Assembly (NCBI GenBank): GCA_039621445.1
Contig: CP154954.1
Location: forward strand, 17,452,589-17,516,588
Length of the DNA stretch: 64,000 bases
DNA from: Euglena gracilis
Taxonomy: Eukaryota
Reading direction: 5' to 3'
The notes under the pieces are model-generated. The model was not told the DNA's origin. It did no database searches and saw only the letters and a program-made list of their open reading frames with translations. The position numbers and the translations under genes were made by a program. Below, one piece after another: positions 3,015 through 40,947 of this stretch; the first letter of the stretch is position 1, and each line of letters opens with the position of its first letter.

Positions 3015-3182
3015 CCATGCCCCCCCATATGAGACCTCCCATGTAAGACCCGCCCCCTGGCCGGCCGAAGGCCGGCCCTTTGGCTGGGACCGACCCCCCC
3101 CCCCCATATAAGACCGCCCCCCCATATAAGACCCCCCCTAGGATTTTGGCTCCCGAGGGGGGTCTTATGGGGGGGGGCATGG
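3015..3182. mobile_element. MITE with CCATGCCCCCCC TIRs and TA target duplication (Tc1/mariner-like)
   Basis: TA|CCATGCCCCCCC...GGGGGGGCATGG|TA; the nearby uninterrupted paralogue GTCAATAAACGTG (~2943) shows the empty site, supporting a TA TSD. Confidence 0.8.
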
Positions 3183-5700: not shown

Positions 5701-6878
5701 ATAAATCCCATGAATAGAGTCTCAGTTTGAATGGTTTCAGGCGGTGTGTGACCGCTTTTTATTTTTTTGCCATATTATCCCCTCAAAGACACCAAAATCG
5801 GTTCTCCCCCTTTCCGCCCCCCATCTCCTCTTTCCCCCCCCTCAACCCCCTATCTCTCCCCCCATCTCCACTTTCAACCCTCCCTCCCCTGCCCAATTTT
5901 GTGCCCTCTAAATTTTTGCATTTTTTTTTTTCATTTTGCCTTCTCCCCTTTTGAGCTTGATTTACCTCCTTTCTTTGTTTCCTCGTTTGCTCTTTTCCGG
6001 CGAACTCATTGCCAGTCTTTTCATCATTGAGCAAAAATGCTGATTTTTTGTAAATTTTCTTGTATTCCGGGACACTCTTGGCAAATGTATTTGAAGGTGG
6101 GCAAAAATCCAGACGCCTTTGGCAGTTTATTTTTATCAAGTATGGGCAAATTTTTTGGGTGTAAGGTGTAATAATTTTTCAAAAGCAATCAAATCCTGGT
6201 GTGCTGTTTTTGCTGTTTTTATTTTTACAATTTTCTGACAGGTGCAATAGATGAAACCGAACATGTTTACTGTAAGTCAGTTTTTTAAATGGTTGGTGCC
6301 TTTTTCTGGTGCCTCCTGATTTGGGAGGTTTTTATGCCTATTTCACCAAAAAGGTGGAGTTTTTCAAAATCGTTTGAAGTCAAAGTTATTTTCCAAAAAA
6401 AAAACATGTTTTTGCTTCCCCCCCCCCATCTGGCAAGTTGGAAATTGGAGGGGGGGACCACCACTTTCTGTCTCGCACAGGGGAGGGTCCAAGAGCCAAA
6501 GGTTTCTTTTTACAAATTTGGTGTTATTCACCATTCTTAATCCTTTTTATCTCCCGAAATGTATTCAGCTTTTTGAGAGTTTGACAACCTGCTTTTGATG
6601 TTGACGAATTTGAGGCTTTTGTGGATTATGTTGCAACTGATTTCAAGGATCCATCCATGCCTGTTGCATATGCTCAGATCTCTTCTTCAGATCTCTTATT
6701 GCAATCTTTTTCATGGTATCAACGCCAAATGACAAATAACGTTTTCTGATACGAAAACTGTGTCCAAAACGCCGGTTCGGGCGTGAAGCCGTGTTCCAGA
6801 ACGCCGGTTCAGGCGGCAGCCCGAACCGGCGTTCTGGAACACGGCTTCACGCCCGAACCAGCGTTCTGGACACAGTTG

Positions 6879-7664
6879 TTGAAACCGTGGATTAGGGGCT
6901 CTGGCTTCACGCCCGAACCGTCGTTCAAGGAATCACGGCCAATTTCGCCCTAAATACCCATTTTTCAAACATTTTGGAGCATTTTTGGGCTGGCTGACTG
7001 AAGTTTTCACAGGTCTGGTGCCATGTTACCCATCGATCGAAAGCTCTTCTCAAGGGTTTTTGACATTGATATGCTGTATGGCACCTGAGGTGTGGGATTT
7101 CACAAATTAAGATGTCAAAATTTCGAATACACGATCGCTGAAAACAAGCGCTGTGTGCATCTTGGCCGAATCCTGTGGCCATCTCGAAAGCTCTCCCCAA
7201 GACCTTTCTCTTGGTACCCTCAGAACTCAGCTACACTACAGAGCACTCTGAAAATCGGCGATCGCATTTTCCGACCCTGTTTTCAAAGTCAAAATTCCTA
7301 TGTTTCACCAGCTATGCTGCCCATCTATCGAAAGCTCTTCTCAAGGGCTTTCAGCAGATGGCCTTAGATTCCAGCTGTATTCTATTTCAAAAGAATTCCC
7401 CAAATTTGGCGAAATGGAAATTGTTGCACAAAATACCCCATATCTGGCCAAATACCCCCCCAAAACTGCCCAAATGTGATTGCCACATGTCTACTAACCA
7501 TTTTGAACACTTTTTGGCACTTTTTATTTTCGGTCCCCTGGACGCCATCTTTCCCGCCCGAACCGTCCTTCTCGACACCGGTTCGGCGCAAAAAATTCTG
7601 CGCCGAACCGGCGTTCAGAACGCCGGTTCGGGCGTGAAGCCAGAGCCCCAATACACGGTTTCAA
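6879..7664. mobile_element. Non-autonomous TIR element, family X copy 2
   Basis: TTGAAACCGTG...CACGGTTTCAA ends; shares interior motifs such as CTCTTCTCAAGGGCTTTCAGCAGATGGCCTTAGATT with 1957-2774. Confidence 0.7.
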
Positions 7665-8530: not shown

Positions 8531-8562
<32 letters not shown>

Positions 8563-11112
8563 TGATTGGTATGGACGAGGAATTCTAGGAATGGGTGGCG
8601 GTGGGTGGGGATGGGAGGGGATGGGAGGGAGGTGGGGGGGTGCCGCAGAGGGGGGAGGCCTCGCACGGTTTTCACGCCCACCTCCAGCCGGTGCGGCCCG
8701 AACTGGAGGGCCGGAGATACCAGCTCCGGCAGGCCGGGGGTGGCACACCTGCGATGTCGCCGCCTCCGCGTCCGTGCTGGTCATGGTCTCCTTCTGCCGC
8801 CGCTGCCGCCGCCGCCCGCCGCGACGATGGCCTTGAAGGGGATCCCACGGGTTGGGATGAGAGGGGATCGGAGGGGGGCCGGCCCTTGCCTCCCTCTCTC
8901 TCTCTCTCTCCCCTCCGCGGTGGTCTCGATGTGGTTGGGGGCTCCGACTCCCCCGACAGTGGCGTTGAGCTTGACATTTTTCCTGCAGCTTCTTCAGCTC
9001 CGCGCTCAGGGCGGAGATGGTGTCCGCCATTCTCTTGATCTCCTTGTGCAGGGCAGCCCCTCGCCTGCTCTGCACCGGCGTCCATACGTCGCCTTCTTCT
9101 CTTCTGCCTCTTGCTTCATCACGGGGTTGGTTGCCCTGCGCACTCCCAGGGCGAGAGGGTCTTGTAGATCTCATGGCGCTTGAACTTTGTGATTCCCCAG
9201 GGCGGTGCCCACGGGTCGATTCCCTGTTGGGTCGCCAAGGGGCTTGGGGCCGGGGCAAATCCCGCTTCGCTTGCTCCCCTGCGGACGGGGTTGGCGGGGC
9301 ACAGGCACCACGCTGCCTGCCACCCGCCCGGACTTGGCTCGGTCTCGCTCCGGGGACGTGGCTCCCAGAGGGTTGGTGGCCCTGGGGGGGGCCGTGGGGG
9401 TGGCGCCTTGGACCGGGGTGGTCGGCCTCCCCGATCCTGGCACCTTCATGCCAGTCGTGCGTCTGGCGCTCGAGGTCCGCGGGGCGCTCGACGTTCTGGG
9501 CTGCTGCGGCTTCTTGCCATTCTTGGATGATGCTCCGCCGCTGGGGGCCGCACGAGGCCCAGACCTGGTTCTGCAGGTCCGGGTCCCATGATTCGTACAT
9601 GGCTTGTCCTCGTCCTGCTTGTCGTGGGTCCTTCAGCACCGCCTTCCACTCTTCGTACTTGGCTCGCCACTCGGCAGGCCACTCACTCAACGAAGTGAAC
9701 TTCCTCTTCTTCGTGGGGCCTTGGGAAGAGGTGTCGTCGTCGGTGGTGTCGCTGGGTGGCGGCGGGGGAGCGGTGAGGAGGAGGCGGTTGGGGGCCTCGA
9801 TGGCGGGAATGGGGAGACCTTGGAGGAGGGCCAAGGAAGACGAGGAGGAGGAGGAGGGGCCGATGGTGAGGGTGTGGAGATGCACATTCTGCACGATGGA
9901 GGGGGGTTGTGGCGGGGAGGGTGGGGGGTAGTGGGGGTTGGGTGCCCGGGCCTCCACGGGGACGGGGACGGGCATGGGGACCCGGACCTCCACGGGGACT
10001 TGCACGGGGACCGGGACGACCCGCTCGATGACCCGATCCACGAAGACAGGCTCCCGCACGGGAACGGGGACCTGCCTCTCGACGATGACGACCCGCTCCT
10101 GGAGGACCTCACGGGTGGGTGGGGGGAGGCATGGGGTTGGGGAGGCGGAGTCCGGGTTGGAGAGAGGGGGGCCTTGGGAGGCTGTGGGGGCCGTTGGGGC
10201 GCTGGGGGATTGGGAGGCGGTGCTTGGCTGCGCTGCAACCCCCTCGAGGGCGTCCGTCTCTGTCTCCATGGCCGTGGGCTGGCAACTCTCAGGCCCGCCC
10301 GGGCTCCCCGGGGGCGAGATCCTTGGCGGCGTCACCCCCGGTTCACCGCCCAGCGTAAACCCCGCTCCGGTGTGGGCCAGCCTGTCGCTTGGGGCGTCCC
10401 CCCTCGGCTCTGAGGCCGGTCCTGGCAGCACGATCACGGACCCGCCCGGGCTCCCTGGGGCTGAGATCCTTGGCGGCGTCACCCCCAGTTCACAGCCCGA
10501 CGTAAACCCCGTCACGGTGTGGGCCAGTCCGTGGCTCGGGGCGTCCCCCTCGCTGTCCTCAGGCCCGCCCGGGCTCCCCGGGGGCGAGATCCTTGGCGGC
10601 GTCACCCCCGGTTCACCGCCCAGCGTAAACCCCGCCCCGGTGTGGGCCGGCCTGGTGCTGCGGCTGTTTGGGGCGTCCCCCTCCTCTTGACTGATTGGTA
10701 GAGGCTCGCCCGGGCTCGCCGGGGGCGGGATCCTTGGCGGCATCACCCCCGGGTCCTTGCCCTTGCTGCTCACGAATTGGGCGCACCTCACCTCTGGGGC
10801 GTCCCCCTCTCTGAGCCCTGGCCAGTGGACGGATCGGGACGCTCCTCTCGGGGCCTGCTGCTTGCCGTGGCGCACGTGGGCCTCCCGGTCGATGATCATC
10901 ACATCCACGTCGGAGGCCTGGGAGGCGGAGGGGGAAGGGGGCGGCATCATCTCGGCCAGCAAGTCGTCGATGCCCCCGGGGAGGGGGGCGGGGTGGCCGA
11001 AGACGGAGAGAAAGTCGGCCTGGGAGGGGGCATGGGCCTCATCGAGGGGGAGGGCTGTGGCCCATGGGGCTGGGGGAGCGCGGTGGGGGCTGGAGTGGAG
11101 CCACTTCCACAC
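8531..11112 (-). CDS. PLE post-RT extension: Pro-rich repeats, PVPV repeat, Trp-rich helical module, 2A-like motif, coiled coil; no stop inside the element
   Basis: Part of the 912-aa open frame 8374..11112; copy B shows WKWLHSSPH is in frame with RT; blocks EWPAEWR, WDxxLQxQVWA, HDWxEGxRIGEAxxPGP and NPWxPLQ are conserved in the divergent family 2 element. Confidence 0.7.
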
Positions 11113-12943
11113 CTTGGAAAACCAGGTGCGGAGCTCACGGACGCGGATGTCGGTGGCATGCCAGCGCTGGAAGAGGAAGGAAGCGGCTCCACACCGACTG
11201 CACCAGGCGGCGAGAGTACCCCCGCCAGATGGCGTTGCGGAAGATGTTGGCCACTGACTGCTTGAAATCCCCCATGTGGCTGCAGGCCATCCGGGCGAAC
11301 TCCAGGCGGCCCATGATGACCCCGCCCAGCTGCTCGGTGGGGGCGGTGGTGGTGGCTAGGGGGTAGCGAACAATGTGGTGGGGGTACTCCTCCTCCCGGT
11401 CGTGGACGGTGGTGTGCACCACGCGGTCCCCGTTGGAATGGCATTGGATGTACACCCGGACGCCCAGGCACACCACGGACTCGCCGGAGCCGGTGGTCTT
11501 GTACTCCATGCCGTACTCGGCTGCCGAGGGGAGGGGCATGGTGGTGGGGTGGACGATGTCGTCGATGTATCGGGACACGGCGGAGGACCGGAGCTGGGGA
11601 GGGAGGGCGTACATGTGGTCGCGCTCCACGGGGTAGCAGGCCAGGTTGGCCAGCTGCGGGGCCGGGGGGAGGCCCATGGGCATGCCCCGGATCTGGCGCC
11701 GGACCCTTCCGCCATTGCAGGTGTAGTTGTTCTGCACCGCCACGGCCACCAGCTCCTTCAGGTCATCCAAGGAGTAGCCGAGGCCATCCCACGACCAGCC
11801 GCCGGTGGTGAGGGACGGTGGGGTGGCGGGGTCCACCCCAGCGGGGGTCTTGGTCTCCCGCACGAAGGCCCAGGCCTCCTTGGCCGACTCCATGGTCCGC
11901 TCGATGATGGCGTCGAAGGTGAAGGCCGTGTACATCGTCGTGAAGTCCGCCGTCTCCAAGCCCCCCGCCAGGATGTCCTTGGAGTGGGTTCGGACCATCC
12001 GGACGAAAGACTCCACGCTGTCGATTCCCCAGAACGCCTTGATGCCCTCCTGCTGTTGCCGCCGCTCGTCCTTTTCCCGGAGGGCGACCTCGATGTGCTT
12101 CAGGAGCGACACCAAAGCCTTGCTCAGGGCATAGAGGGGCTGCCGGGGGGGCTCCTTGGAGGCGGTGGGGGCGGAGGCGGGGGCGGACTCAGAGGCGGGG
12201 GCGGGGGACCCGGGGTCGGGATCGGGGTTCTTGCGGGTCCCGGCAATGAACCGGAACTTCTTCTTCGCTGGCTTCCAGATGCCGTAGTTGTAGACGACAC
12301 CGGCGCCAGTGGGGAAGTGCAACCGCTGGTTGACCTCCGACAGCCGGGCAACCACCTCCCTCCAGGTGTCGGTCACGTCCTCGAACACGGTGGAGTCCGC
12401 CAGGTAGGTGGCCATCTGCTTCTGGTACCAGCGCTTGCAAACGAACATCAGGCCGTGGGGGGCCCGGTCGTCGTGGAGGAAGACGAGGACCTGGTGGGCC
12501 TCCCGCATTTGCTGTGACAGGCCCGGGAAGCCGGTGGGGACCAGCTCTTCTCTGACGGCCGAGCACCGCCAGTTGGTGGTGCAGCGGGCCTCCACGGCGT
12601 CGGCCCACTCGCCCAGCTTCCGGAGGTAGGTGGCGTCGGTGGGGTTGCTGCGCGCTGCCCACTCGGTGTACTGGTTCAGCGCCCGGCGGAGGTCGTGGAG
12701 GACGGTGTCGGGGGGGCCCTCCAGCCGGAACTTCTTCCCCTTGGCCGCCAGGGTTTGCAGGTACGACCATCGCAGCAGCTCGGACTCGTTGCTCACCACG
12801 TGGCCCTCGTGGAAGGCTGCCGGCTCCTTCCGGCGGAGGGCTGTGTGGCACTGGCAGCCCTCGAGGTCGTCGGCCTGCGCGGCGGCCACGTCCAGCTCGC
12901 TGGAGACCTGGGCGTAGTTGCACAGCCACGCCTGCCATTGCGG
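8531..12943 (-). mobile_element. Penelope-like retroelement family 1, copy A (5'-truncated, 3' end in (GA)n)
   Basis: Near-identical reverse complement of ~24313-29235 (without the MITE found in copy B); PLE-type RT motifs; ends ...CCAATCAAGAAGAGAGA(GA)n, seen as the TC run at 8531-8558. Confidence 0.9.
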
Positions 12944-12946
12944 CAC
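11135..12946 (-). CDS. PLE reverse transcriptase domain (copy A, N-terminally truncated)
   Basis: ADFTTMY, IRGMPMGLPPAPQLANL, RYIDDI, CLGV and upstream DDRAPHG (position of the PLE DK motif); frameshift near 11180-11210 relative to copy B. Confidence 0.88.
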   Translation of the reverse strand: MPQWQAWLCNYAQVSSELDVAAAQADDLEGCQCHTALRRKEPAAFHEGHVVSNESELLRWSYLQTLAAKGKKFRLEGPPDTVLHDLRRALNQYTEWAARSNPTDATYLRKLGEWADAVEARCTTNWRCSAVREELVPTGFPGLSQQMREAHQVLVFLHDDRAPHGLMFVCKRWYQKQMATYLADSTVFEDVTDTWREVVARLSEVNQRLHFPTGAGVVYNYGIWKPAKKKFRFIAGTRKNPDPDPGSPAPASESAPASAPTASKEPPRQPLYALSKALVSLLKHIEVALREKDERRQQQEGIKAFWGIDSVESFVRMVRTHSKDILAGGLETADFTTMYTAFTFDAIIERTMESAKEAWAFVRETKTPAGVDPATPPSLTTGGWSWDGLGYSLDDLKELVAVAVQNNYTCNGGRVRRQIRGMPMGLPPAPQLANLACYPVERDHMYALPPQLRSSAVSRYIDDIVHPTTMPLPSAAEYGMEYKTTGSGESVVCLGVRVYIQCHSNGDRVVHTTVHDREEEYPHHIVRYPLATTTAPTEQLGGVIMGRLEFARMACSHMGDFKQSVANIFRNAIWRGYSRRLVQSVWSRFLPLPALACHRHPRP

Positions 12947-13249
12947 CCCCTCCCCCAGGGGTTGGTGCTACGACCCCAGGACCGGCGGCTTAATTTGGGT
13001 ACTCACGCCCCAAGCCTTCGGGTGCCGTCCGTATTTTTCGGCAATTTTTGCCTCTTTCCACACCGAAAGGGCCTTGTCTCGCCCTCCCCAAAGGGTGCTG
13101 TCCCGGAGGGTGCCCCGTAGGTAGTGGACCATTTTTCCGTCCCGCGCTGCCTTGTTTTTGGGGCCGGTTTTTTTCAGCCCCCCCCCTCCCCCACCCCCGG
13201 GAGGGTGACGCAGAGCTCGTTTGTAACGGTCTGCACCACACAGACAAGA

Positions 13250-13322
13250 GCGGTCGGGGACGAGGGTTGGCAGGGTCGTCACCCCTGACGATGCCCCACC
13301 TGCCAGCCTGGGGCGAAACCGC
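13250..13322 (+). ncRNA. Type III hammerhead ribozyme (unit 1)
   Basis: Stem III GCGGT/ACCGC, GTC cleavage triplet (cut after 13255), stem I GGGGACGA/TCGTCACCC, core CTGACGA (13285-13291) plus one extra T, stem II GCCCCA/TGGGGC, GAAA (13315-13318); loops I and II are complementary. Confidence 0.9.
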
Positions 13323-13909
13323 AACACAGACTGACAACACACGCGCCCACACCGACTGACAACACACTTCCCCCACAAGCACACACTCTCGGGTCGGCAA
13401 GGAGTTCCCCCCAAGGAGTTCCCCCAGCAACACCGATTCAGAAGAGAGATTTACGCAGTGACCCTGCGTCCCATGGAGCTTTCCATGGCATTTTTCCCAG
13501 AATTGCATGGCGCGGTTGTTTCGCACCCCCATGCCTCGCCCCCAGCGCCCCATTTTGTGGGCTAAACCCGCGGCAGTTCTACTGAGCAACCGGCGGCTCA
13601 GGCCACCCCCTCCCCCAGGGGTTGGTGCTGCGACCCCAGGACCGGCGGCTTAATTTGGGTACTCGCGCCCCAAGCCTTCGGGTGCCGTCCGTATTTTTCG
13701 GCAATTTTTGCCTCTTTCCACACCGAAAGGGCCTTGTCTCGCCCTCCCCAAAGGGTGCTGTCCCGGAGGGTGCCCCGTAGGTAGTGGACCATTTTTCCGT
13801 CCCGCGCTGCCTTGTTTTTGGGGCCGGTTTTTTTCAGCCCCCCCCCTCCCCCACCCCCGGGAGGGTGACGCAGAGCTCGTTTGTAACGGTCTGCACCACA
13901 CAGACAAGA

Positions 13910-13982
13910 GCGGTCGGGGACGAGGGTTGGCAGGGTCGTCACCCCTGACGATGCCCCACCTGCCAGCCTGGGGCGAAACCGC
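13910..13982 (+). ncRNA. Type III hammerhead ribozyme (unit 2)
   Basis: Same sequence as 13250-13322. Confidence 0.9.
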
Positions 13983-14570
13983 AACACAGACTGACAACAC
14001 ACGCGCCCACACCGACTGACAACACACTTCCCCCACAAGCACACACTCTCGGGTCGGCAAGGAGTTCCCCCCAAGGAGTTCCCCCAGCAACACCGATTCA
14101 GAAGAGAGATTTACGCAGTGACCCTGCGTCCCATGGAGCTTTCCATGGCATTTTTCCCAGAATTGCATGGCGCGGTTGTTTCGCACCCCCATGCCTCGCC
14201 CCCAGCGCCCCATTTTGTGGGCTAAACCCGCGGCAGTTCTGCTGAGCAACCGGCGGCTCAGGCCACCCCCTCCCCCAGGGGTTGGTGCTGCGACCCCAGG
14301 ACCGGCGGCTTAATTTGGGTACTCGCGCCCCAAGCCTTCGGGTGCCGTCCGTATTTTTCGGCAATTTTTGCCTCTTTCCACACCGAAAGGGCCTTGTCTC
14401 GCCCTCCCCAAAGGGTGCTGTCCCGGAGGGTGCCCCGTAGGTAGTGGACCATTTTTCCGTCCCGCGCTGCCTTGTTTTTGGGGCCGGTTTTTTTCAGCCC
14501 CCCCCCCTCCCCCACCCCCGGGAGGGTGACGCAGAGCTCGTTTGTAACGGTCTGCACCACACAGACAAGA

Positions 14571-14643
14571 GCGGTCGGGGACGAGGGTTGGCAGGGTCGT
14601 CACCCCTGACGATGCCCCACCTGCCAGCCTGGGGCGAAACCGC
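14571..14643 (+). ncRNA. Type III hammerhead ribozyme (unit 3)
   Basis: Same sequence as 13250-13322. Confidence 0.9.
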
Positions 14644-15230
14644 AACACAGACTGACAACACACGCGCCCACACCGACTGACAACACACTTCCCCCACAAG
14701 CACACACTCTCGGGTCGGCAAGGAGTTCCCCCCAAGGAGTTCCCCCAGCAACACCGATTCAGAAGAGAGATTTACGCAGTGACCCTGCGTCCCATGGAGC
14801 TTTCCATGGCATTTTTCCCAGAATTGCATGGCGCGGTTGTTTCGCACCCCCATGCCTCGCCCCCAGCGCCCCATTTTGTGGGCTAAACCCGCGGCAGTTC
14901 TGCTGAGCAACCGGCGGCTCAGGCCACCCCCTCCCCCAGGGGTTGGTGCTGCGACCCCAGGACCGGCGGCTTAATTTGGGTACTCGCGCCCCAAGCCTTC
15001 GGGTGCCGTCCGTATTTTTCGGCAATTTTTGCCTCTTTCCACACCGAAAGGGCCTTGTCTCGCCCTCCCCAAAGGGTGCTGTCCCGGAGGGTGCCCCGTA
15101 GGTAGTGGACCATTTTTCCGTCCCGCGCTGCCTTGTTTTTGGGGCCGGTTTTTTTCAGCCCCCCCCCTCCCCCACCCCCGGGAGGGTGACGCAGAGCTCG
15201 TTTGTAACGGTCTGCACCACACAGACAAGA

Positions 15231-15303
15231 GCGGTCGGGGACGAGGGTTGGCAGGGTCGTCACCCCTGACGATGCCCCACCTGCCAGCCTGGGGCGAAAC
15301 CGC
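15231..15303 (+). ncRNA. Type III hammerhead ribozyme (unit 4)
   Basis: Same sequence as 13250-13322. Confidence 0.9.
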
Positions 15304-15881
15304 AACACAGACTGACAACACACGCGCCCACACCGACTGACAACACACTTCCCCCACAAGCACACACTCTCGGGTCGGCAAGGAGTTCCCCCCAAGGAGT
15401 TCCCCCAGCAACACCGATTCAGAAGAGAGATTTACGCAGTGACCCTGCGTCCCATGCAGCATTTTTCCCAGAATTGCATGGCGCGGTTGTTTCGCACCCC
15501 CATGCCTCGCCCCCAGCGCCCCATTTTGTGGGCTAAACCCGCGGCAGTTCTACTGAGCAACCGGCGGCTCAGGCCACCCCCTCCCCCAGGGGTTGGTGCT
15601 GCGACCCCAGGACCGGCGGCTTAATTTGGGTACTCGCGCCCCAAGCCTTCGGGTGCCGTCCGTATTTTTCGGCAATTTTTGCCTCTTTCCACACCGAAAG
15701 GGCCTTGTCTCGCCCTCCCCAAAGGGTGCTGTCCCGGAGGGTGCCCCGTAGGTAGTGGACCATTTTTCCGTCCCGCGCTGCCTTGTTTTTGGGGCCGGTT
15801 TTTTTTCAGCCCCCCCCCTCCCCCACCCCCGGGAGGGTGACGCAGAGCTCGTTTGTAACGGTCTGCACCACACAGACAAGA

Positions 15882-15954
15882 GCGGTCGGGGACGAGGGTT
15901 GGCAGGGTCGTCACCCCTGACGATGCCCCACCTGCCAGCCTGGGGCGAAACCGC
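15882..15954 (+). ncRNA. Type III hammerhead ribozyme (unit 5)
   Basis: Same sequence as 13250-13322. Confidence 0.9.
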
Positions 15955-16070
15955 AACACAGACTGACAACACACGCGCCCACACCGACTGACAACACACT
16001 TCCCCACAAGCACACACTCTCGGGTCGGCAAGGAGTTCCCCCCAAGGAGTTCCCCCAGCAACACCGATTC

Positions 16071-16534
16071 AGAAGAGAGAGAGAGAGAGAGGGGGGAGGA
16101 GAGAGGAGAGAGAGGCGAGAGAGAGAGAAGATGAGAGGAGGGGGGGAGCCGGGAGAAGAAAAGAGAGATGGAGAGGGAGAGGGAGAGAGAGAGGGGAGGG
16201 AGGGGGGGAGGCGCGGTCGAGGGGGAGAGGGTGAAGAGAAGGGGGGGGGGGGGAGGGGGGGGGGGGGGGTGGGGGAAGGGGGGGGGGTGGCGACGGGGGG
16301 GGGGGGGGGGGCTGAGGGTGGGGGAAAGGGGGGGAAGAGAGGGGGGGGAACGCGGAGGGGCAGGGGCGGGGCAGAGAGGGGGGGCGGGGGGGGGAGGGGC
16401 TGTGGAGCGGGACGGGGGGGGGGTGGAGAGAGGGAGGTGGCGTGGAGGGGGTGGGGTGGAGGGAGAGAAGAGGGGAGGGGGGGTGGTGGGGAGGAAGGGA
16501 GGGGGGAGAAAGGGCGGTGGATGGAGCGGGAGAG

Positions 16535-16565
<31 letters not shown>

Positions 16566-16640
16566 CAGGGAGAGAGGAGAGAGAGAGAGAGAGAGAGAGA
16601 GGCGAGAGGGAGGGCGAGCGGGGAGGTGGGAGAGAGAGGG
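16071..16640 (+). repeat. Polypurine (GA/G-rich) tract
   Basis: Almost pyrimidine-free on the + strand; (GA)n and poly-G runs. Confidence 0.9.
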
Positions 16641-16859
16641 GGGTGAAGAAGCAGAGCAGGCGACAACGCTGCGATCGCAGCAGAAGAGGGGCGAAGGCGG
16701 AGAGAGGCCGAGAAGATGGTACGGAGAGAGAGGTGTACAAGCTCCACCCAGAGCCGGAGAGGGGCAAGAGAGAGCGGAGGTGGGCAGAGCCAGCAGAGGC
16801 ACAAACCCATGCAGAGAGCCGAGAGAAGAGGGGGAGAGACTGGGGACGCAGGTGCGACC

Positions 16860-19700
16860 GAACGCCACGCTGGTGGAGGGGCACGTCCTCTCCACAGACC
16901 CCGACGAGCTGGCGTCCCCGTACCTGAGGGAGATCCTCAGCAAGGGGAAGAAGTACCGCCTGCGGCTGCCCATCTCGTCAGTGCTGGCGCGCCTCGACGA
17001 CGGCCTCCGCCAGTACGTGGAGTACAAGACCAAGGCCCACCAAGACGACGAGGGCTACCGCACGGGCCTGCTGAAGTGGGCGGAAGCGGTGCGGGCACGC
17101 GCAGAGGCCCGCATCACGCAGGCGGCGAGGGAGCACCCCCACGAGCCAGACGGGTACCCCAACCTGCAGGAGCAGCTCAGCGCAGCCAAGAGGGCGCTGG
17201 TGTTCGGGCCGGAGGACAGGGCACCGCACGCCCTGTTCTTCGCCTGCGGGCGGCTGTTCGCGGCGAAGCTGCACGAGCGGCTAGAAGCGACCGGGGCATT
17301 CGTCCCAGACGCCCGCCCGCCGGCGGACCTGCTGGAGCAGATCAAGGCCCTGAACGACGAGCTGCAGCTCCTCCACCACCCACGGCTGCCATACCTCTAT
17401 GGAGCATGGAAGGCCAAGAAGCAAGCCTTCCGCTGGATTGCCGGGACGGCCCGGAACCAGGACGAAGGCGACCATGAGGAAGAAGAAGGAAAGCCAAAGA
17501 ACGCCCTCTCCGAAGTGGGCGGCCTCATGGTCAAAGTGCTCCAAGTGGTGATGGCAACCCTGCGGCGAAAGGACCGGGAAGCAGTGGGCAAAGGCAACAA
17601 GTCCCGCTACTGGATCATCGAGGACATCGATGAGTTCGTGCAGGAGTTCCGGGTGCTGGCGCAAAGCCGAGCGCTGAGCGCCGTGCCGTGGGCAACGTAT
17701 GACTTCACCACCATGTACGAGGCGCTGGAGCACGAGCACCTGGTGCACGGGGTGATGGCAGCGGTGAAGGAGGCCTGGGAGGAGGAAACCATCGGCAAAG
17801 CACGGGACACGGGCCAACATCCACGAGACGTGGACCTACGCCTGGGGGCAGGGGGCTGGCACGAGGCGGCCAAGGTGAAGGACGCCCCCGGAATGCCGTG
17901 GTTCACGCTGCCGAGGGTGGAGGACACCCTGCGCAAGATGCTGGCCAACCTGTACGCGGTGAACGGCGGGGTGGTGCGGAAGCAGCAAAAGGGAGTACCC
18001 ATGGGGCTGGAGTGCTCCCCGCAGCTGGCCAACCTGTACGCCTACGCCGTGGAGAGCAGGTGGGTGGACCGAACGGCACCGACCAACGTCCTGATGCGGC
18101 GGTACATCGACGACATCATCGTCATGGGACCAGATGCCCTCACCCCCGGGAAAGGGCTGCCCACCGAGGAGGACTACGGGATGCAGTACAAGTCCACCGC
18201 CGAGGAGCCCCACAGCCTCATCTACCTGGGGGTGCGGCTGTTCGTGGACGACCGCGGACAAGCCCACTCGGTCCTGCACGACCGTGCAGTGGACTACCCC
18301 ATCCGGGTGGACCGATACCCCGAGGGCACAACAGTGGCCAACCCAGCCCAGCTGGCAGGCGTCATCATGGGCCGGTTGGTGGCAGCCCAACGGACATGCA
18401 GCCGCATGGATCTGTTCCAAGACGCGGTGGCCGGCATCTTCACCCACGCGCATCGCAGGGGATACCCACGGAGAATGGTGCACTCCACGTGGACCCGGTT
18501 CCTGTGGCGGTACTGGGACGCGGCATCCGTCACCACGCGGGAACTGCGGGCGTGGTTCCACGACGCGTGGCGAAAGGTGACGGAAGCGGAGGAGGGGGGA
18601 CAGCGCAAGCCGGCCCCCAAGTGGCCAACGTGGGAAGCCCGCGTACCACTGCCGCGGGACAGTGGCAGGGGAACACCACAGCACCCACCACCGCGGGACG
18701 CAGCAGGGCACCAGGCAGCATGTGAGGGGACCCCCCAGCCCCAAGCAGCACAACGGGAGCCCATCGACGACCTCATCGACCTCACCACGCCACCGGGGTC
18801 CCCGCCACACGCAAGCCCAGGCGACGGGGAGCCGCAGGGCGGCTCCTCGCAACCAGCCAGCAGCTACCGCCCGATGGCACCGCCGCTGATACCGTACCCC
18901 CTCCCACCGAGCGGCAGGGGAGGGGTGGGGCCAACCAGGACCGGACGACCAGGACAGAGGGGGGCAGGGCAGAAAGGCAACATACCGCCGAGAAGGCCGT
19001 GGTCTTCACCGGTGTACCCCACGCGGGGGGCTGCCAGCTCGTCGTCGACTTGGGCCGAAAAGGCTGTGCGATGGGGCTGTCCGCCTTCCGAGTCGCTGCC
19101 ACTGCACGCCCCTCTCGCACAGGAGCGTGCAGTGGGGGGCGCACTCTCCCCACGAGCACAGCCACCTCACGTCCCTGTCGCCGAAACACGGTGCACAGCG
19201 AGCACACAGGAGCGGGAGGTGGCCGGCGCTTCCCCCACACCCACCACACAGACATCAGCGGCGACGCCAACCAGCCAGCAGCCACCAACAACCACAGTGC
19301 AGCAGCCGCTGCAAGTGGTCCAGGTGCCCCAACCGTACCCGGTGCCGGTGCCGGTGCCCACCCCCTGTCCCGTGCCGGTGTACGTCGAGCGCGTGGTGCC
19401 GGTACAGATCCCAGTGCCATACCACGTACCCGTGCCGGTGGTCGTGGAGCGCGCAGTGCCCACACCGTACCCGGTGCCGGTGCACGTGGAGCGCCTGGTG
19501 CCAGTGGAACGCCCACTCCCGCTGCCGTGGCTGGACACCGGGGCAGTGACCGCGCTGCTCCGGGGGGCGAGCGCACAGCTGCCCATGCCAGTCCAACGCC
19601 TGATCCAAGCGGTCAGCAGCACCACCGGGCCGACGAGGGCCCGGTGGCAGCGGGAGATGGGGCGACCACAGCCTTACCCGGCGGAAGGAGCAGTGGACCC
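16860..19700 (+). CDS. PLE family 2 reverse transcriptase and PVPV repeat region
   Basis: Inside ORF 16168..20736: EGHV..KGKKYRL, EDRAPHA, WKAKKQAFRWIAGT, DFTTMY, YIDD, QLAGVIMGRL, RRGYPRRMV all align with family 1. The coding frame appears to switch near 19630-19790. Confidence 0.8.
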
Positions 19701-19779
19701 CCAACGGGCACTGCTCGTCGAAATGGTGCGATGGATCTGGCAGCAGCAACAGCAGCAGCAAGAGAGCCGCCCCTCACCC

Positions 19780-22029
19780 ATCGCGCCACGCTGGCGATCG
19801 AAGACGCACCCACCGCAGCCACACCCACATCGCCCGCGGCAGGCACCACCCCGGCAGGAGCAGCACCACCACCAAGCAACAACCCACCACCACCCGCAAC
19901 GGAAGGGGCCAGCACCACCGCCACGCCAGCAGCACCAGGCAGCACCAGCCCCGCGCCCGCAGCAGCAGCAGCAAGCAGCACGCCGGCCCCACCAACACCA
20001 ACCACAAGCGCCACACCGCCACCGAGCGCCACCCCCACGCAGGAAGCACAAAGCACCACAGCCACCGAGGAGGCACCGGCAAGAAGCGACCCCATGGCCA
20101 CAGACCGACTCCTGGGCAACAAGCGCCCAGTGTCGGTGGTGGTGGAGGAGGCGGCCACACCACAGCCCACCGAAGGGGACGATGCCTCGCAGGCAACCCA
20201 ACCAAGCCAACGCAAGAAGAGGCTGTACACACGCTTGGCCGAGTGGCCGGCAGAGTGGCGGGAGCAGTACGAGCGGTTCAAGGCCACGCCCAAAGCAAGC
20301 GACCGCCACGAGATGTGGCAGGGGTGGGACCAAAGCCTCCAAGACCAAGTGTGGGCAGCCGTCGCCGACAAGCGGAGGGACGAGATCCGCCGATGGAAGG
20401 CGAGGGAGAACGAAGGCCCACCAACCCAAGCAGAAGGCCAAGCCAGAAGCACGCGAGAAGAGAGGCGGAGGTCCCACACCGGAGCGGCAGACGAAGGTGG
20501 AGAACCCACCAGCCACGACTGGCAAGAAGGCCAGCGCATCGGGGAGGCGAAGCAGCCAGGCCCAGAAGAGGAAGGGTCGGCAGCGGACCCCCCCGAGGGG
20601 CAAGCGGGGAGCCCAAAGAATCACCCGCGACCGGCCTGGGGCGGCTCTCCAGGGGTACCTGCCGATCACCGGCAGGGCGTGTCCCGGCACGCCGTCAATC
20701 GGGACCCCAACAAAACAGAACCCACCAGCACCATGAACACAAAAATCACAGGCATGCCAGGCAATGACGGCCTGCCCGGCGCAGAGGACCTCTGCCCCGG
20801 GTGGCAGGCGGGGCGCCAGCCTAAGAACCCGCAACCGATCTGGGGCGGATCTCCAGGGGTACCTGCCAATCACTGGCAGGGCGTGGCCCGACACGCCGTC
20901 AAGTGGGACGAAGGAGCAGAAGAACCGTGCCCCAGAAGCAGAAGCCAAGACCAGCACGACTGGAAGAAAGGGGCACGGATCGGGGAAGCAAAGAACCCCG
21001 GACCACCCCAAAGAGGGTACCAACAGCCCAACCCAAAAGGGGGGGCCCAGCGAGGAGGACAACAAACAGGAAAAGGACAGACACAGCCCAGGAAAGGAGG
21101 CAAGGGTGGCAAAGGAAACGTCACCCCACAAGGAAGCCGGCAGGGCCAACCCCAAGGAGAGGGCTGGCAAACAGCACAAAGCACCGGCCGAAAACGCCTC
21201 CAAAAGCGCCTCCAAGGGCTCCAACGGGCGCTGCAAGAAATGCAGCAAGAGCTCGACCAATGGCGGCAGAATCCGCCCCCGCAGCAGCAGCAGCAACGAC
21301 CGGACCTAAGGGACGACAACCCCTGGGCCCCCCTGCAGCCACAGCAACAACGCCGGGAGCGGAAGAGATCCATTGGGTTTGAACCCCCAAGCCGCCAAGC
21401 GAGCAGGCAGCCGCCAGAGCAACGAGGAGGACGCGGAGGACGGGGAGGACGAGGTCGTGGACGAGGCGACGGAGCCCAAGATCGACACGGCCATGGAGAT
21501 CCCCGAAACCCGCGTGCCGGGCACGGAACTTGCCAGCCGTGCCCGTCATGCGGGTACCAGAACGAGGTGTACCACGCCGACGGGGCCCTGGGGGGTGGGG
21601 GGCTCGCCGGCGGTGGCATCCCCGGGCCCCCGGGCCCTGGCGCGGGGTCCGGGGGTGGCGTGAAAGGCGTGCGGAGCCCATGGGGGGAGCGCCGCCCCCC
21701 CAGCACGCACGCACGCACGGGGACCGCCACACACCCACCAGCAGGCAAGGGAGGGGGAGGGGGAAGGGGCAGCCCAGCGCGCCAGACAGACGGGCATCCG
21801 GAGGACCGGCGGCCAAGGGAGGGGGGAGGGGGAAAGGGATGGGCAGCCCAGAGCGCCAGACAGACGGGCAGCCACCGGGGGACAGGAGGCCAAGGGAGGG
21901 GGGAGGGGGAAAGGGAAAGGCAGCCCACGTGGAGAGAGAGAGGGGGAGGGGAGAGAGGAGGACAGACAGAGGGGAGAGGGGGGAGAGGGAGGAGAGAGGG
22001 AGAGAGGGAGGAGAGAGGAGAGGAGAGGT

Positions 22030-22669: not shown

Positions 22670-22745
22670 CCAGGCGGTCTGCCCCCACCAGCCGGGCGTC
22701 GGGGGCATCGACAAGGAAGGCCCGGCTGGATCCGAAACCGCCTGG
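22670..22745 (+). ncRNA. Type III hammerhead-like ribozyme with variant core (TCGACAA)
   Basis: Stem III CCAGGCGGT/ACCGCCTGG, GTC site, stem I TGCCCCC/GGGGGCA, core TCGACAA (22708-22714), stem II GGA/TCC, GAAA; perfect 10-bp loop-loop complement CCAGCCGGGC/GCCCGGCTGG. Confidence 0.75.
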
Positions 22746-22764: not shown

Positions 22765-22829
<65 letters not shown>

Positions 22830-22841
<12 letters not shown>

Positions 22842-25800
22842 CAAGGGCCGGCCCCCCTCCGATCCCCTCTCATCCCAACCCATGGGATCCCCTTCAAGGC
22901 CATCGTCGCGGCGGACGGCGTCGGCAACGGCGGCAGAAGGAGACCATGACCAGCACGGACGCCGAGGCGGCGACATCGCAGGTGTGCCACCCCCGGCCTG
23001 CCGGAGCTGGTATCTCCGGCCCTCCAGTTCGGGCCGCACCGGCTGGAGGTGGGCGTGCAACCCGTGCGAGGCCTCCCCCCTCTGCGGCACCCCCCCACCT
23101 CCCTCCCCATCCCCTCCCATCCCCACCCCCACCCACACCCAGAATCCCCCGTCCATACCAATCAAGAAGAGAGATTTCCGCAGTCCCTGCGGCTCGGGGA
23201 GCTTTCCCCGGGGTCCACCGTGAATTGCCTGGCGAGGTTTCTCGCACCCCCAGGCCTCCCCCCGAGCGCCCTCCCGGGCAACCCTCTTCCCGAAGGCCCC
23301 CCAGGCCGTCCCACTCCCGTGATGACCGTGCCCTCCCCATCGCCGAGCCCTACGACAAGCACGACCCCCAGCCGTCCCGCCACCGCCGCAACGAGGGGCA
23401 GTGGAGCTGGCAGGACCACCTGCAGTGGATGCAACGCAGCTGGGGGCGGCGATCTTGGCGCAACAAGACCATGCGCAGGGTCCTGCAGCTCCGCTCCAGC
23501 GACTCAGCCAACGCCGCCGTGGACTGGGGCGACGTGGCCGCCCTGTGGGATGCCCCCGGCTGGATTTACGCCCTCTTCCACTTCCCCACGGGGCGACTGT
23601 ACGTCGGGCAGACCACCCGGAAGGTTTACAAGCGGGCCAAGGAGCACTGGTGGAGCCGGGGGCGCTGCGCCGACGCCCTGCACGACGCCCTGGCCAACGA
23701 CCCCACCCCCTTCTCCTTCCTCATGATCCCCATCGAGAGGCTCCCCTCACCCGACAGCTTCCCCCGGGCTGACCGCCGCGCCCTCGCCCGCCGGGATGCC
23801 CTCGCCCGCGAGCGCAAGTGGGTGGGCCTCCTCAACTCCATGTGGCCCCATGGCTTCAACGCCGCCTACCCCGGCTTCCCCGTCAGCCGGAAGGTGCTCC
23901 GCCGCCAGCACACCCTCCCCAGCCCCGATCCCGCCCCCACATCCCAAGGCGACCCCCCGCCCAGCCCCGACCTAACCAAGTGGCTCCGTCGCTGCCACCA
24001 AGGGGACTCCAGCGCCCTGGCGGAGGCACGCTCCTGGGGCAAGGCGCGGCTGTGTTCCACCCTGGACTGGCTGCAGCAGCACGTCCCGGACGACGAGCGG
24101 CGCTCCGGCCACCTCTCGCTGGAGTGCAAGCTGGTGGAGCTGATCAAGGCGAAGAGGAAGGAGGCCCCCGAGCGGCAGTTCCTGAAGTTCTCCTACTCCA
24201 ACAACGGCGCCCGCCACCTGGAGCTGCGCAAGGTGTTGCGGGAAGAGGCCGTCTACAAGCTCCACCCCAACCCGGACGTCGCCGCAGCCATCATGGTCTG
24301 CGACAAGTTCGCCCCGCAATGGCAGGCGTGGCTCTGCAATTACGCCCAGGTCTCCAGCGAGCTGGACGTGGCCGCCGCACAGACCGACGACCTCGAGGGC
24401 TGCCAGTGCCACACAGCCCTCCGCCGGAAGGAGCCGGCAGCCTTCCACGAGGGCCACGTGGTGAGCAACGAGTCAGAGCTGCTGCGGTGGACGTACTTGC
24501 AGACCCTCGCGGCCAAGGGGAAGAAGTTCCGGCTGGAGGGCCCCCCTGACACCGTTCTCCATGACCTCCGCCGGGCGCTGAACCAGTACACCGAGTGGGC
24601 AGCGCGCAGCAACCCCACCGACGCCACCTACCTCCGGAAGCTGGGCGAGTGGGCCGATGCCGTGGAGGCCCGCTGCACCACCAACTGGCGGTGCTCGGCC
24701 ATCAGAGAAGAGCTGGTCCCCACCGGCTTCCCGGGCCTGTCACAGCAAATGCGGGAGGCTCACCAGGTCCTCGTCTTCCTCCACGACGACCGGGCCCCCC
24801 ACGGCTTGATGTTCGTTTGCAAGCGCTGGTACCAGAAGCAGATGGCCACCTACCTGGCGGACTCCACCGTGTTCGAGGACGTGACCGACACCTGGAGGGA
24901 GGTGGTTGCCCGGCTGTCGGAGGTCAACCAGCGGTTGCACTTCCCCACTGGCGCCGGTGTCGTCTACAACTACGGCATCTGGAAGCCAGCGAAGAAGAAG
25001 TTCCGGTTCATTGCCGGGACCCGCAAGAACCCCGACCCCGACCCCGGATCCCCCGCCCCCGCCTCGGAGTCCGCCCCCGCCTCCGCCCCCACCGCCTCCA
25101 AGGAGCCACCCCGGCAGCCCCTCTATGCCCTGAGCAAGGCTTTGGTGTCGCTCCTGAAGCACATCGAGGTCGCCCTCCGGGAAAAGGACGAGCGGCGGCA
25201 ACAGCAGGAGGGCATCAAGGCGTTCTGGGGAATCGACAGTGTGGAGTCTTTCGTCCGGATGGTCCGAACCCACTCCAAGGACATCCTGGCGGGGGGCTTG
25301 GAGACGGCGGACTTCACGACGATGTACACGGCCTTCACCTTCGACGCCATCATCGAGCGGACCATGGAGTCGGCCAAGGAGGCCTGGGCCTTCGTGCGGG
25401 AGACCAAGACCCCCGCTGGGGTGGACCCTGCCACCCCACCGTCCCTCACCACCGGCGGCTGGTCGTGGGATGGCCTCGGCTACTCCTTGGATGACCTGAA
25501 GGAGCTGGTGGGCGGTGCAGAACAACTACAGCTGCAATGGCGGAAGGGTCCGGCGCTAGATCCGGGGCATGCCCATGGGCCTCCCCCGGCCCCGCAGCTG
25601 GCCAATCTGGCCTGCTACCCCGTGGAGCGCGACCACATGTACGCCCTCCCTCCCCAGCTCCGGTCCTCCGCCGTGTCCCGATACATCGACGACATCGTCC
25701 ACCCCACCACCATGCCCCTCCCCTCGGCAGCCGAGTACGGCATGGAGTACAAGACCACCGGCTCCGGCGAGTCCGTGGTGTGCCTGGGCGTCCGGGTGTA

Positions 25801-26265
25801 CATCCAATGCCATTCCAACGGGGACCGCGTGGTGCACACCACCGTCCACGACCGGGAGGAGGAGTACCCCCACCACATTGTCCGCTACCCCCTAGCCACC
25901 ACCACCGCCCCCACCGAGCAGCTGGGCGGGGTCATCATGGGCCGCCTGGAGTTCGCCCGGATGGCCTGCAGCCACATGGGGGATTTCAAGCAGTCAGTGG
26001 CCAACATCTTCCGCAACGCCATCTGGCGGGGGTACTCCCGTCGGCTGGTGCAGTCGGTGTGGAGCCGCTTCCTCTTCCAGCGCTGGCATGCCACCGACAT
26101 CCGCGTCCGTGAGCTCCGCACCTGGTTTTCCAAGGTGTGGAAGTGGCTCCACTCCAGCCCCCACCGCGCTCCCCCAGCCCCATGGGCCACAGCCCTCCCC
26201 CTCGATGAGGCCCATGCCCCCTCCCAGGCCGACTTTCTCTCCGTCTTCGGCCACCCCGCACCCCC
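22830..26265 (+). CDS. PLE polyprotein: N-terminal GIY-YIG endonuclease, Cys/His linker, RT (locally frameshifted)
   Basis: GWIYALFHFPTGRLYVGQT...RAKEH...ERKWVGLLNSMWPHGFN (23558-23860) matches the GIY-YIG pattern including R, H, E, N residues; CQCH...HEGH linker; DFTTMY; YIDD. The GMPMG motif is out of frame through compensating indels. EN-before-RT order is that of Naiad/Chlamys-type PLEs. Confidence 0.85.
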
Positions 26266-27787
26266 CCCTCCCCGGGGGCATCGACGACTTGCTGGCCGAG
26301 ATGACGCCGCCCCCTTCCCCCTCCGCCTCCCAGCCCTCCGACGTGGATGTGATGATCATCGACCGGGAGGCCCACGTGCGCCACGGCAAGCAGCAGGCCC
26401 CGAGAGGAGCGTCCCGATCCGTCCACTGGCCAGGGCTCAGAGAGGGGGACGCCCCAGAGGTGAGGTGCGCCCAATTCGTGAGCAGCAAGGGCAAGGACCC
26501 GGGGGTGATGCCGCCAAGGATCCCGCCCCCGGCGAGCCCGGGCGAGCCTCTACCGATCAGTCAAGAGGAGGGGGACGCCCCAAACAGCCGCAGCACCAGG
26601 CCGGCCCACACCGGGGCGGGGTTTACGCCGGGCAGTGAACCGGGGGTGACGCCGCCAAGGATCCCGCCCCCGGGGAGCCCGGGCGGGCCTGAGGACAGCG
26701 AGGGGGACGCCCCGAGCCACGGACTGGCCCACACCGTGACGGGGTTTACGTCGGGCTGTGAACTGGGGGTGACGCCGCCAAGGATCTCAGCCCCAGGGAG
26801 CCCGGGCGGGTCCGTGATCGTGCTGCCAGGGCCGGCCTCAGAGCCGAGGGGGGACGCCCCAAGCGACAGGCTGGCCCACACCGGAGCGGGGTTTACGCTG
26901 GGCGGTGAACCGGGGGTGACGCCGCCAAGGATCTCGCCCCCGGGGAGCCCGGGCGGGCCTGAGAGTTGCCAGCCCACGGCCATGGAGACAGAGACGGACG
27001 CCCTCGAGGGGGTTGCAGCGCAGCCAAGCACCGCCTCCCAATCCCCCAGCGCCCCAACGGCCCCCACAGCCTCCCAAGGCCCCCCTCTCTCCAACCCGGA
27101 CTCCGCCTCCCCAACCCCATGCCTCCCCCCACCCACCCGTGAGGTCCTCCAGGAGCGGGTTGTCATCATCGAGAGGCAGGTCCCCGTTCCCGTGCGGGAG
27201 CCTGTCTTCGTGGATCGGGTCATCGAGCGGGTCGTCCCGGTCCCGGTGCAAGTCCCCGTGGAGGTCCGGGTCCCCATGCCCGTCCCCGTCCCCGTGGAGG
27301 TCCGGGTACCCATCCCCATCTACCTCCCTCCCTCCGCACCACAAGCCCCCTCCATCGTGCAGAATGTGCATCTCAACGCACTCACCATCGGCCCCTCCTC
27401 CTCCTCGTCTTCCTTGGCCCTCCTCCAAGGTCTCCCCATTCCCGCCATCGAGGCCCCCAACCGCCTCCTCCTCACCGCTCCCCCGCCACCACCCAGCGAC
27501 ACCACCGACGACGACACCTCTTCCCAAGGCCCCACGAAGAAGAGGAAGTTCACTTCGTTGAGTGAGTGGCCTGCCGAGTGGCGAGCCAAGTACGAAGAGT
27601 GGAAGGCGGTGCTGAAGGACCCACGAGAAGTAGGACGAGGACAAGCCATGTACGAATCATGGGACCCGGACCTGCAGAACCAGGTCTGGGCCTCGTGCGG
27701 CCCCCAGCGGCGGAGCATCATCCAAGAATGGCAAGAAGCCGCAGCAGCCCAGAACGTCGAGCGCCCCGCGGACCTCGAGCGCCAGAC

Positions 27788-28307
27788 CAGGGAATTTCTT
27801 AAGGACCCCCCGGGGGGGGGGGGGGGTCCAGCCTCCGGCTGGCAAAAAGGCTGCTGGCTGGATTTGAGCTGCTGGCTGGACCCCCCCCCCCGGGGGGGTG
27901 GGGGGGGGGGGGGGGGGGGGGGGGTCCGGGGCTGGAGCGGGCTGGGCTGGGCTGGGTCGAGGAAAAACAAAATTTTCTAACACATTTTGGCCATTTTCGA
28001 CATTTTGATGGGTGGAGCTAGATCAAGGCTGGGGGGCTGTGATGGAGGGGCTGTGATGAGGGGGAAAAATGCAGGGATAAGTGAGCTGGACAGCCCGGTT
28101 GGCTGGCCGGCCTGCGGCCGGCTGGGCCGGCCTTCGGCCGGCTGGCCCGGCCTCCGGCCGGGCTGGACCCGACTTTATTTCACTCGACCCCCCGGGGGGG
28201 GGGGGCTCCCAGCCCAAATTTGGGCTGCTGGCTGGATTTGAGCTGCTGGCTGGCTGGACCCCCCCCCCCCGGGGGGTAGGGTACCCTCCGGCTTAAGAAA
28301 TTCCCTG
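27788..28307. mobile_element. hAT-like MITE inserted in PLE copy B
   Basis: Perfect 16-bp TIR CAGGGAATTTCTTAAG; 8-bp TSD CGCCAGAC (27780-27787, 28308-28315); copy A has the empty site. Confidence 0.93.
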
Positions 28308-40847: not shown

Positions 40848-40947
40848 CAACTGTGTCCAGAACGCCGGTTCGGGCTGCCGCTTTACCCCTCCGGACCCCC
40901 ACCGACCCCCCACCAACCAAAGATTTCCATGGGGGTGGTTCGGGACA

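Follow-up and report, generated by a model that had tools for sequence, protein, structure and literature searches.

A canonical-core type III hammerhead motif with unusually long loop-loop complementarity in a retrozyme-like, PLE-linked euglenid repeat

Penelope-like elements (PLEs) carry hammerheads that are known for the most part as minimal motifs of type I, weak in activity and uncertain in function. The window examined here (the whole stretch of 64,000 nt of DNA that was analysed) contains a hammerhead-shaped motif at 13250-13322 whose two closed loops are complementary to each other over a length of 10 bp, and the locus raises the question of whether such a motif is a working ribozyme and, if so, whether the pairing of its loops supports cleavage or silences it. 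The evidence assembled below supports the description of the motif as a type III hammerhead with a canonical core, whose loop-loop complementarity is conserved and unusually long and which lies in a retrozyme-like, PLE-linked euglenid repeat. The explanation that we prefer, with a probability of roughly 0.6, is that the motif is a genuine type III self-cleaving hammerhead carried in a 660-nt protein-less repeat, which would be a non-autonomous derivative of Naiad/Chlamys-type PLEs in a Euglena-like nuclear genome.

On the forward strand the motif is laid out as GCGGUC / GGGGACGA-loop-UCGUC(A)CCC / CUGACGA / U / GCCCCA-loop-UGGGGC / GAAA / CCGC, with three helices surrounding the core (Table 1). 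Every element of the invariant hammerhead core is in register: the CUGACGA and GAAA segments, the U-A pair (A15.1-U16.1) and a non-G nucleotide, C17, at the predicted cleavage position. The topology is type III, with loops at the ends of helices I and II and an open helix III. GGTTGGCAGG in loop I (GGUUGGCAGG) and CCTGCCAGCC in loop II (CCUGCCAGCC) can form a helix of exactly 10 bp, one pair of which is G-U, and the flanking letters do not extend it. These readings bear out the initial annotation of the locus, which had described a type III hammerhead, a 10-bp complementarity between loops I and II with a single G-U, and a T inserted between CTGACGA and stem II. The core, GUC and GAAAC are in register, and the 5' strand of helix II that follows the T is GCCCCA. 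In a search with type III hammerhead models, which the annotation had also proposed, Hammerhead_3 (RF00008) was the top Rfam match of the motif and aligned over its full length (model positions 1-54 of 54), but the score of 16.8 bits (E 0.35 on 181 nt) fell below the gathering threshold of 48.5 bits. In this alignment the long loops are penalised as insertions (23 and 13 inserted positions). The whole window, when compared with Rfam at the gathering threshold, returned no match. The hammerhead is followed directly on its 3' side by an AC-rich tract (13323-13370) in which 16 nt are duplicated (GACTGACAACACAC...). Frangieh et al. (2024, PMC11167929) reported, for a vertebrate PLE, that RT initiates at an internal site within an AC-rich stem-loop.

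Table 1. Positions of the hammerhead motifs, the tandem array and the neighbouring retroelements in the window.
Feature	Position	Strand	Remarks
Type III hammerhead copy 1, whole motif	13250..13322	+	sequence reading, Rfam alignment, descriptor
Helix III, copy 1	13250-13254/13318-13322	+	5 bp, GCGGU/ACCGC, includes A15.1-U16.1
Predicted cut, copy 1	after C13255 (13255/13256)	+	GUC site, C17 is the cleavage nucleotide
Helix I and loop I, copy 1	13256-13284	+	8 bp with one bulged A; 12-nt loop
Core CUGACGA (C3-A9), copy 1	13285-13291	+	
Extra unpaired U between A9 and G10.1, copy 1	13292	+	
Helix II and loop II, copy 1	13293-13314	+	6 bp GCCCCA/UGGGGC, G10.1-C11.1 closing; 10-nt loop
GAAA (includes G12-A14), copy 1	13315-13318	+	
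Hammerhead copy 2, identical to copy 1	13910..13982	+	
Hammerhead copy 3, identical to copy 1	14571..14643	+	
Hammerhead copy 4, identical to copy 1	15231..15303	+	
Hammerhead copy 5, identical to copy 1	15882..15954	+	
Tandem array, ~4.75 units of 660 nt	12944..16080	+	spacings 660, 661, 660, 651
One insertion unit, TTTACGCAG ... AGAAGAGAGA	13450..14109	+	
Hammerhead-shaped motif 2, close to the element B 3' end	22670..22745	+	core UCGACAA, perfect 10-bp loop match
Element A, full-length retroelement	23175..29235	+	ORF from ~23564
Partial element A tail copy, pseudo-LTR-like, upstream of element A	22812-23174		
Inverted 5'-truncated element A copy, abuts the array	8541..12943	-	93-98% identical to 24314-29235
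Element B ORF, 5'-truncated	16846..21839	+	99% and 96% identical to EG_transcript_109 residues 285-1949

The motif recurs once per 660-nt unit of a tandem array and is letter-identical in all five copies; because of this identity, the array yields no covariation. The array, whose period lies outside the range of TRF (limit 500), begins at its 5' end inside a unit and stops at its 3' end exactly at the unit terminus ...AGAAGAGAGA, which is followed by (GA)n. We searched the unit for a counterpart of the RT ORF of the neighbouring elements and found none. Its termini are those of a retroelement, however: its first ~100 nt match the element A 5' end with 76% identity (E 4e-14), the last ~30-40 nt resemble the 3' terminus of the same element (a short match), and the head-to-tail junction ...AGAAGAGAGA/TTTNCGCAGT... 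is common to both. Since both ends are shared with element A, the 660-nt unit reads as its non-autonomous, retrozyme-like derivative, that is, a non-coding unit that carries a hammerhead between termini common to an autonomous retroelement. The 5' ends of the unit (13450-13560) and of element A (23175-23290) also carry two small hairpins each. One of the shared hairpins (13471-13488 in the unit, loop AGCUUU) keeps its pairing through two compensatory changes (A-U and U-A to G-C and G-C), and may serve as a signal at the 5' end of the element RNA. Folding of the 660-nt monomer was modestly better than that of 20 shuffles (z -2.3), which does not clearly support a viroid-like rod.

The array is part of a compound insertion (8541-29235) composed, in order, of the inverted truncated copy of element A, the 660-nt array, a G-rich/(GA)n tract (16074-16845), truncated element B, (GA)n, the tail fragment of element A and full-length element A. 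Because every 3' end in this insertion abuts (GA)n, the arrangement suggests that the elements prefer (GA)n targets. The RT ORF at 16135-20736 is 99% identical to the Euglena transcriptome protein EG_transcript_109 (eukprot). The element proteins match RVT_1 (32.3 bits, cut-off 29.6) and, weakly, an N-terminal GIY-YIG domain (13.4-15.2 bits, cut-off 22.6; Pfam), and the motifs IYG...YVGQT...R..H, CPC (CxC) and GKKY/F could be recognised by eye in the alignment and in the transcript protein. In the nearest Atlas clusters, GIY-YIG and RVT_1 are annotated in a minority of members. A search of viral_contigs for relatives of the RT returned none, and a PDB profile search with the RT alignment gave nothing useful. 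The pseudo-LTR-like tail copy, the inverted 5'-truncated copy and (GA)n at every 3' end fit the tandem or inverted copies and microsatellite tails that are described for PLEs with an N-terminal endonuclease (Craig et al., 2021, PMC8557442). As judged from domain order, layout and (GA)n tails, elements A and B would belong to the Naiad/Chlamys type of PLE. Searching element A with our hammerhead descriptors revealed no motif, which counts against the preferred explanation, as the termini of the unit are those of this element.

Other repeats in the window were also recorded. Repeats of 123-147 nt within the ORF of element A (10287-10672 and 26489-26964) encode a reiterated proline-rich segment (GVTPPRISPPGSPGGP...), and the C-terminal halves of the element A and B proteins are of low complexity (PV and Q runs). 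Approximately nine copies of a 46-nt palindromic repeat (CCGAACCGGCG...CGCCGGTTCGG) occur at 1859-2758, 6752-7648 and 39872-40830 and, together with larger inverted repeats (1926-2593/6851-7184 and 39986-40878), look like a separate family of dispersed repeats. Tandem arrays with periods of 11 and 32 nt, unrelated to the hammerhead, are present at 44123-44866 and 60731-61729, respectively.

Public sequencing runs gave a view of the unit beyond the window. It was represented by 0.89-0.95 of the sampled words in 20 runs from 9 studies, of which 14 carry an RNA label that is a guess. In all four runs whose contigs were compared, the contigs span the whole unit and show the head-to-tail joint from 14109 to 13450, and one contig of 690 nt closes the 660-nt cycle; this contig and the joints that go back by 660 are compatible with tandem DNA as well as with circles. 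In one large run, as many as 3536 assembled contigs could be fitted to the unit, which marks it as a very abundant repeat. When variant letters were called from a share of 10% upwards, none fell within 13910-13982 in the large run; as only 4 positions of the whole unit reached that share in this run, the invariance of the hammerhead says little. In run X1, a single contig joins (GA)n to position 13919, 3 nt downstream of the predicted cut. Such a joint is what copying of a self-cleaved RNA would be expected to leave, although the record is a single one.

With the array copies identical, the comparative evidence comes from two other families. Approximately 25 nt upstream of the (GA)n tail of element B, the motif at 22670-22745 combines a 9-bp helix III, the GUC triplet, a 7-bp helix I, a 3-bp helix II and GAAAC with a loop-loop match that is perfect over 10 bp (CCAGCCGGGC/GCCCGGCTGG). 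Its core reads U3 C4 G5 A6 C7 A8 A9 and hence departs from CUGANGA by three changes; among them, the U3-A8 combination is a covariation known from the core of PLE hammerheads (PMC4209133). Compared with Rfam at E values up to 10, this motif returned no hammerhead match. The recurrence of the long kissing architecture at this site, as the initial annotation had it, holds: the complementarity is perfect and spelled in unrelated letters, with the three core changes as a caveat. The third family was found in a survey of 22 metagenome loci with genes for RT relatives (32-54% identity). Three of them (L001, L003 and L015), which represent one element family and are 99% alike, bear four copies of a type III hammerhead with the core CUGAUGA, the same extra U, helices of 6, 5 and 6 bp and a loop-loop match of 10 bp (GGCCCCCGGG/CCCGGGGGUC). 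The L001 motif (141 nt) matched Hammerhead_3 with 27.3 bits and an E value of 2.9e-4, below the 48.5-bit threshold, and a comparison of the three loci together with Rfam at E values up to 1 gave no match. Strict, relaxed and core-free searches of the remaining 19 loci, many of them short, detected no convincing motif. In L015, the 3' region of the element forms a partial tandem of 2307 nt (466-2715 and 2773-5022), pseudo-LTR-like and with one hammerhead per copy; the 3' end of this element is AC-rich and terminates in a CT-rich run.

In all three families, the hammerhead is located 25-127 nt upstream of the 3' end of the element, and the complementarity of loops I and II amounts to 10 bp in different letters. 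Nine of the ten loop-loop pairs are altered on both sides between the 13250 and 22670 motifs, as are 4-6 of the ten in the comparisons with L001, and the single difference between the two L015 copies changes a G-U to a G-C within this helix. The earlier view that the design is kept by structure rather than by sequence is supported, and the metagenome relatives add a third independent family with the same design, including a loop match of 10 bp.

How the loop-loop helix would act is a matter of which fold it serves. One possibility, and the one that we favour, is that it works as a Watson-Crick brace that would align helices I and II side by side and, as with shorter hammerhead pseudoknots, would permit fast cleavage at low Mg2+. 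The main rival is a two-state or OFF-state reading, in which the ribozyme is real and the 10-bp complementarity instead forms a long hairpin at the expense of helices I and II, which leaves the core sequestered. Such a hairpin could shield unit-length or circular RNA from being cut again or offer a stable stem to the RT, and cutting would then take place only during transcription, before loop II exists. Nested MFE folding chose the 10-bp hairpin in place of helices I and II in all three families, with energies in the 13250 motif of -36.0 kcal/mol for the hairpin vs. -26.5 kcal/mol for the hammerhead fold, so the complementarity could define an inactive fold. Moreover, the inner stem of the hairpin pairs with the core in both motifs of the window (UCGUCA/UGACGA at 13250 and GUCG/CGAC at 22670), and the change of U4 to C4 in the 22670 motif is matched by an A to G change in the partner strand of that stem. 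Viroid-type hammerheads are kept off by alternative folds, which also counts in favour of an OFF state. The MFE structure of L001, however, contains only a 2-bp element inside the 10-bp helix and no stable inner stem, so the inner stem is not a conserved feature.

Nested folding is, in addition, a restricted judge of the two folds, for it cannot hold helices I, II and the loop-loop helix together. The naive sums of the hammerhead fold and the loop duplex (-45, -52 and -41.5 kcal/mol), which contain no pseudoknot penalty, are lower than the nested optimum in each of the three families. Some strain has to be allowed for: the loops of the 13250 motif leave only 1+1 and 0+0 unpaired linker nucleotides, and because these linkers are so short, the full 10 bp may be sterically strained when helices I and II are intact; L001 has linkers of 3 nt on the 5' side of each loop. 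The conservation of the two helices weighs on the other side. Each family retains helix I (6-8 bp) and helix II (3-6 bp) but spells them differently, which speaks for selection of the hammerhead fold, whereas an OFF hairpin alone needs neither of them. Loop I-loop II pseudoknots of 4-6 bp are reported in ~40% of hammerheads, among all three types, and mutations identified them as necessary for fast cleavage (Perreault et al., 2011, PMC3088659). This report agrees with the statement in the initial annotation that loop I-loop II contacts speed up hammerhead cleavage, and an activating role of the shorter pseudoknots runs counter to an OFF state. We favour the brace because helices I and II are kept, the naive sums are lower and the shorter published pseudoknots activate, and we consider it unlikely that the complementarity serves solely to switch the ribozyme off.

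A less probable rival, to which we give little credence, is that the motif is decayed or non-catalytic and that its hammerhead shape is kept for recognition by the RT or endonuclease or for dimerisation of the RNA. The 22670 sister motif, with three core changes of which one affects U4, is what such a history might leave behind; most Naiad/Chlamys elements are described as proliferating without canonical hammerheads (PMC8557442), and hammerhead mutants left the insertion of a vertebrate PLE in vitro unaffected (PMC11167929). Every invariant core position is, nevertheless, intact in the five array copies and the four metagenome copies, and a fold used only for binding would not require CUGANGA, GAAA, the A15.1-U16.1 pair and a non-G at position 17.

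Motifs were detected with custom descriptors, MAFFT alignments having misplaced them, and the descriptors also provided the controls for chance. A strict type III descriptor (canonical core and helices of at least 3, 4 and 4 bp) matched 5 times in the window vs. 3 times in total across 300 block shuffles. A looser descriptor matched 0-5 times per shuffle of ~125 kb, with frequent long chance pairing of loops in low-complexity DNA; given this noise, only the strict descriptor is informative. Additional candidates at 48927-48997, 41863-41942 and 41170-41287, which came from relaxed descriptors and from a search, independent of the core, for pairs of hairpins whose loops are complementary (70 raw matches), have minimal stems and low quality, and we treated them as chance matches. 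When the loops were shuffled with their composition preserved, 165 of 50000 shuffles attained 10 bp for the 13250 motif, 12 of 50000 for the 22670 motif and none of 50000 for the metagenome family. Hence, the reading that G+C-rich repetitive DNA resembles the hammerhead consensus merely by chance, with which the marginal Rfam E value and the noise of the relaxed descriptors would agree, is very unlikely given the shuffle controls and the independent occurrence of the same design beside related RT genes in metagenomes, and ranks in our view as the least credible one.

Several features of the motif have precedents in known systems. Published PLE hammerheads, as Cervera and De la Pena (2014, PMC4209133) characterise them, are type I or minimal motifs that often require dimers and have weak activity, in agreement with the earlier remark that many of them are minimal type I motifs. 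The same account counts G10.1-C11.1, a long helix II and an unpaired nucleotide that separates A9 from G10.1 among their conserved traits, and the extra core nucleotide of the 13250 motif is accordingly not new: it is a tolerated variation and a published hallmark of PLE hammerheads. Other points of resemblance to that group are the association with PLEs and terminal repeats, the U3-A8 covariation (in the 22670 motif) and the proposed processing of tandem transcripts; the extra A9/G10.1 nucleotide, long helix II and G10.1-C11.1 are likewise common to both. Unlike the PLE hammerheads described there, the 13250 motif is a monomeric type III hammerhead in which helices I and II are both closed and the loops match over 10 bp; the PLE hammerheads of protists and fungi are reported in that work to have no recognisable contacts between helices I and II. 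The host elements differ as well. The PLE clade with an N-terminal endonuclease, to which the hosts of the 660-nt unit would belong by type, is described as having no canonical hammerheads except in two Chlamys subclades (PMC8557442), unlike the hosts of published PLE hammerheads.

The closest parallel to the loop-loop helix is found in the pseudoknot-stabilised hammerheads (PMC3088659; Rfam Hammerhead_II, HH10), in which Watson-Crick pairing is described as replacing the non-canonical loop contacts and which likewise have Watson-Crick complementarity between the ends of helices I and II. The examples described there are 4-6 bp long, whereas the pairing is exactly 10 bp in each of the three families described here and takes up nearly the whole of the loops. 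Viroid and satellite hammerheads of the CChMVd type (De la Pena and Flores, 2001, via PMC4209133) share the type III topology and the extra A9/G10.1 nucleotide, although they belong to infectious RNAs and rely on non-Watson-Crick loop contacts, whereas the 13250 motif resides in nuclear repeat DNA. Retrozymes offer the closest comparison at the level of the repeat. Plant LTR retrozymes are reported to carry a type III hammerhead and to give circRNAs of 600-1000 nt, and metazoan non-LTR retrozymes a type I hammerhead in tandem repeats that are proposed derivatives of PLEs (bioRxiv 10.64898/2026.07.22.740005). As described for retrozymes, the unit is non-coding and a few hundred nt long, has one hammerhead, forms tandem arrays and carries the termini of an autonomous element. 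Its 660-nt size resembles that of plant retrozymes, and its tandem layout and link to PLEs resemble those of animals; unlike either class as published, it combines the plant-type type III motif with the animal-type tandem, PLE-linked layout in a euglenid host, where it is known from DNA and contigs. A finding that counts against the preferred reading comes from Frangieh et al. (2024, PMC11167929), in whose study the hammerhead of a vertebrate PLE was assisted by protein in its cleavage and was not required for in vitro insertion. Our literature search, which covered titles only, found no paper tying hammerheads, PLEs or retrozymes to Euglena.

Taken as a genuine hammerhead with a braced fold, the motif would suit the following cycle. 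Transcripts that read through the array would cut themselves after GUC (between 13255 and 13256, and then every ~660 nt) and release 660-nt monomers. Ligation may turn the monomers into circles, which the RT of the element may copy at (GA)n targets. Rolling-circle copying would yield arrays with 3' ends at unit termini and 5' truncation, as in the array at 12944-16080; target-primed reverse transcription from the 3' end across several unit lengths would produce the end pattern of the array. A more far-reaching version, which we put forward tentatively and regard as possible rather than probable, is that euglenids harbour an undescribed class of retrozymes, with highly repeated 660-nt units mobilised by PLEs with an N-terminal endonuclease and circRNAs processed by the hammerhead. 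The 10-bp loop helix, approximately one turn in length, would have two states in such a class: a brace that drives cleavage and ligation and a hairpin that locks the circle and may mark it as a template for the RT.

A monomeric, canonical-core type III motif with a strong putative tertiary lock should be easy to assay. Its presence in an abundant 660-nt repeat of a culturable protist opens the question of whether ribozyme cutting and perhaps circularisation feed PLE-type retrotransposition, and the array system also bears on the origin of tandem arrays and on the maximum length of a working hammerhead pseudoknot. If the preferred reading is true, retrozyme-like elements would extend beyond plants and animals. 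And if the undescribed euglenid class is real, it would unite the plant (type III) and animal (tandem, PLE-linked) retrozymes in one protist.
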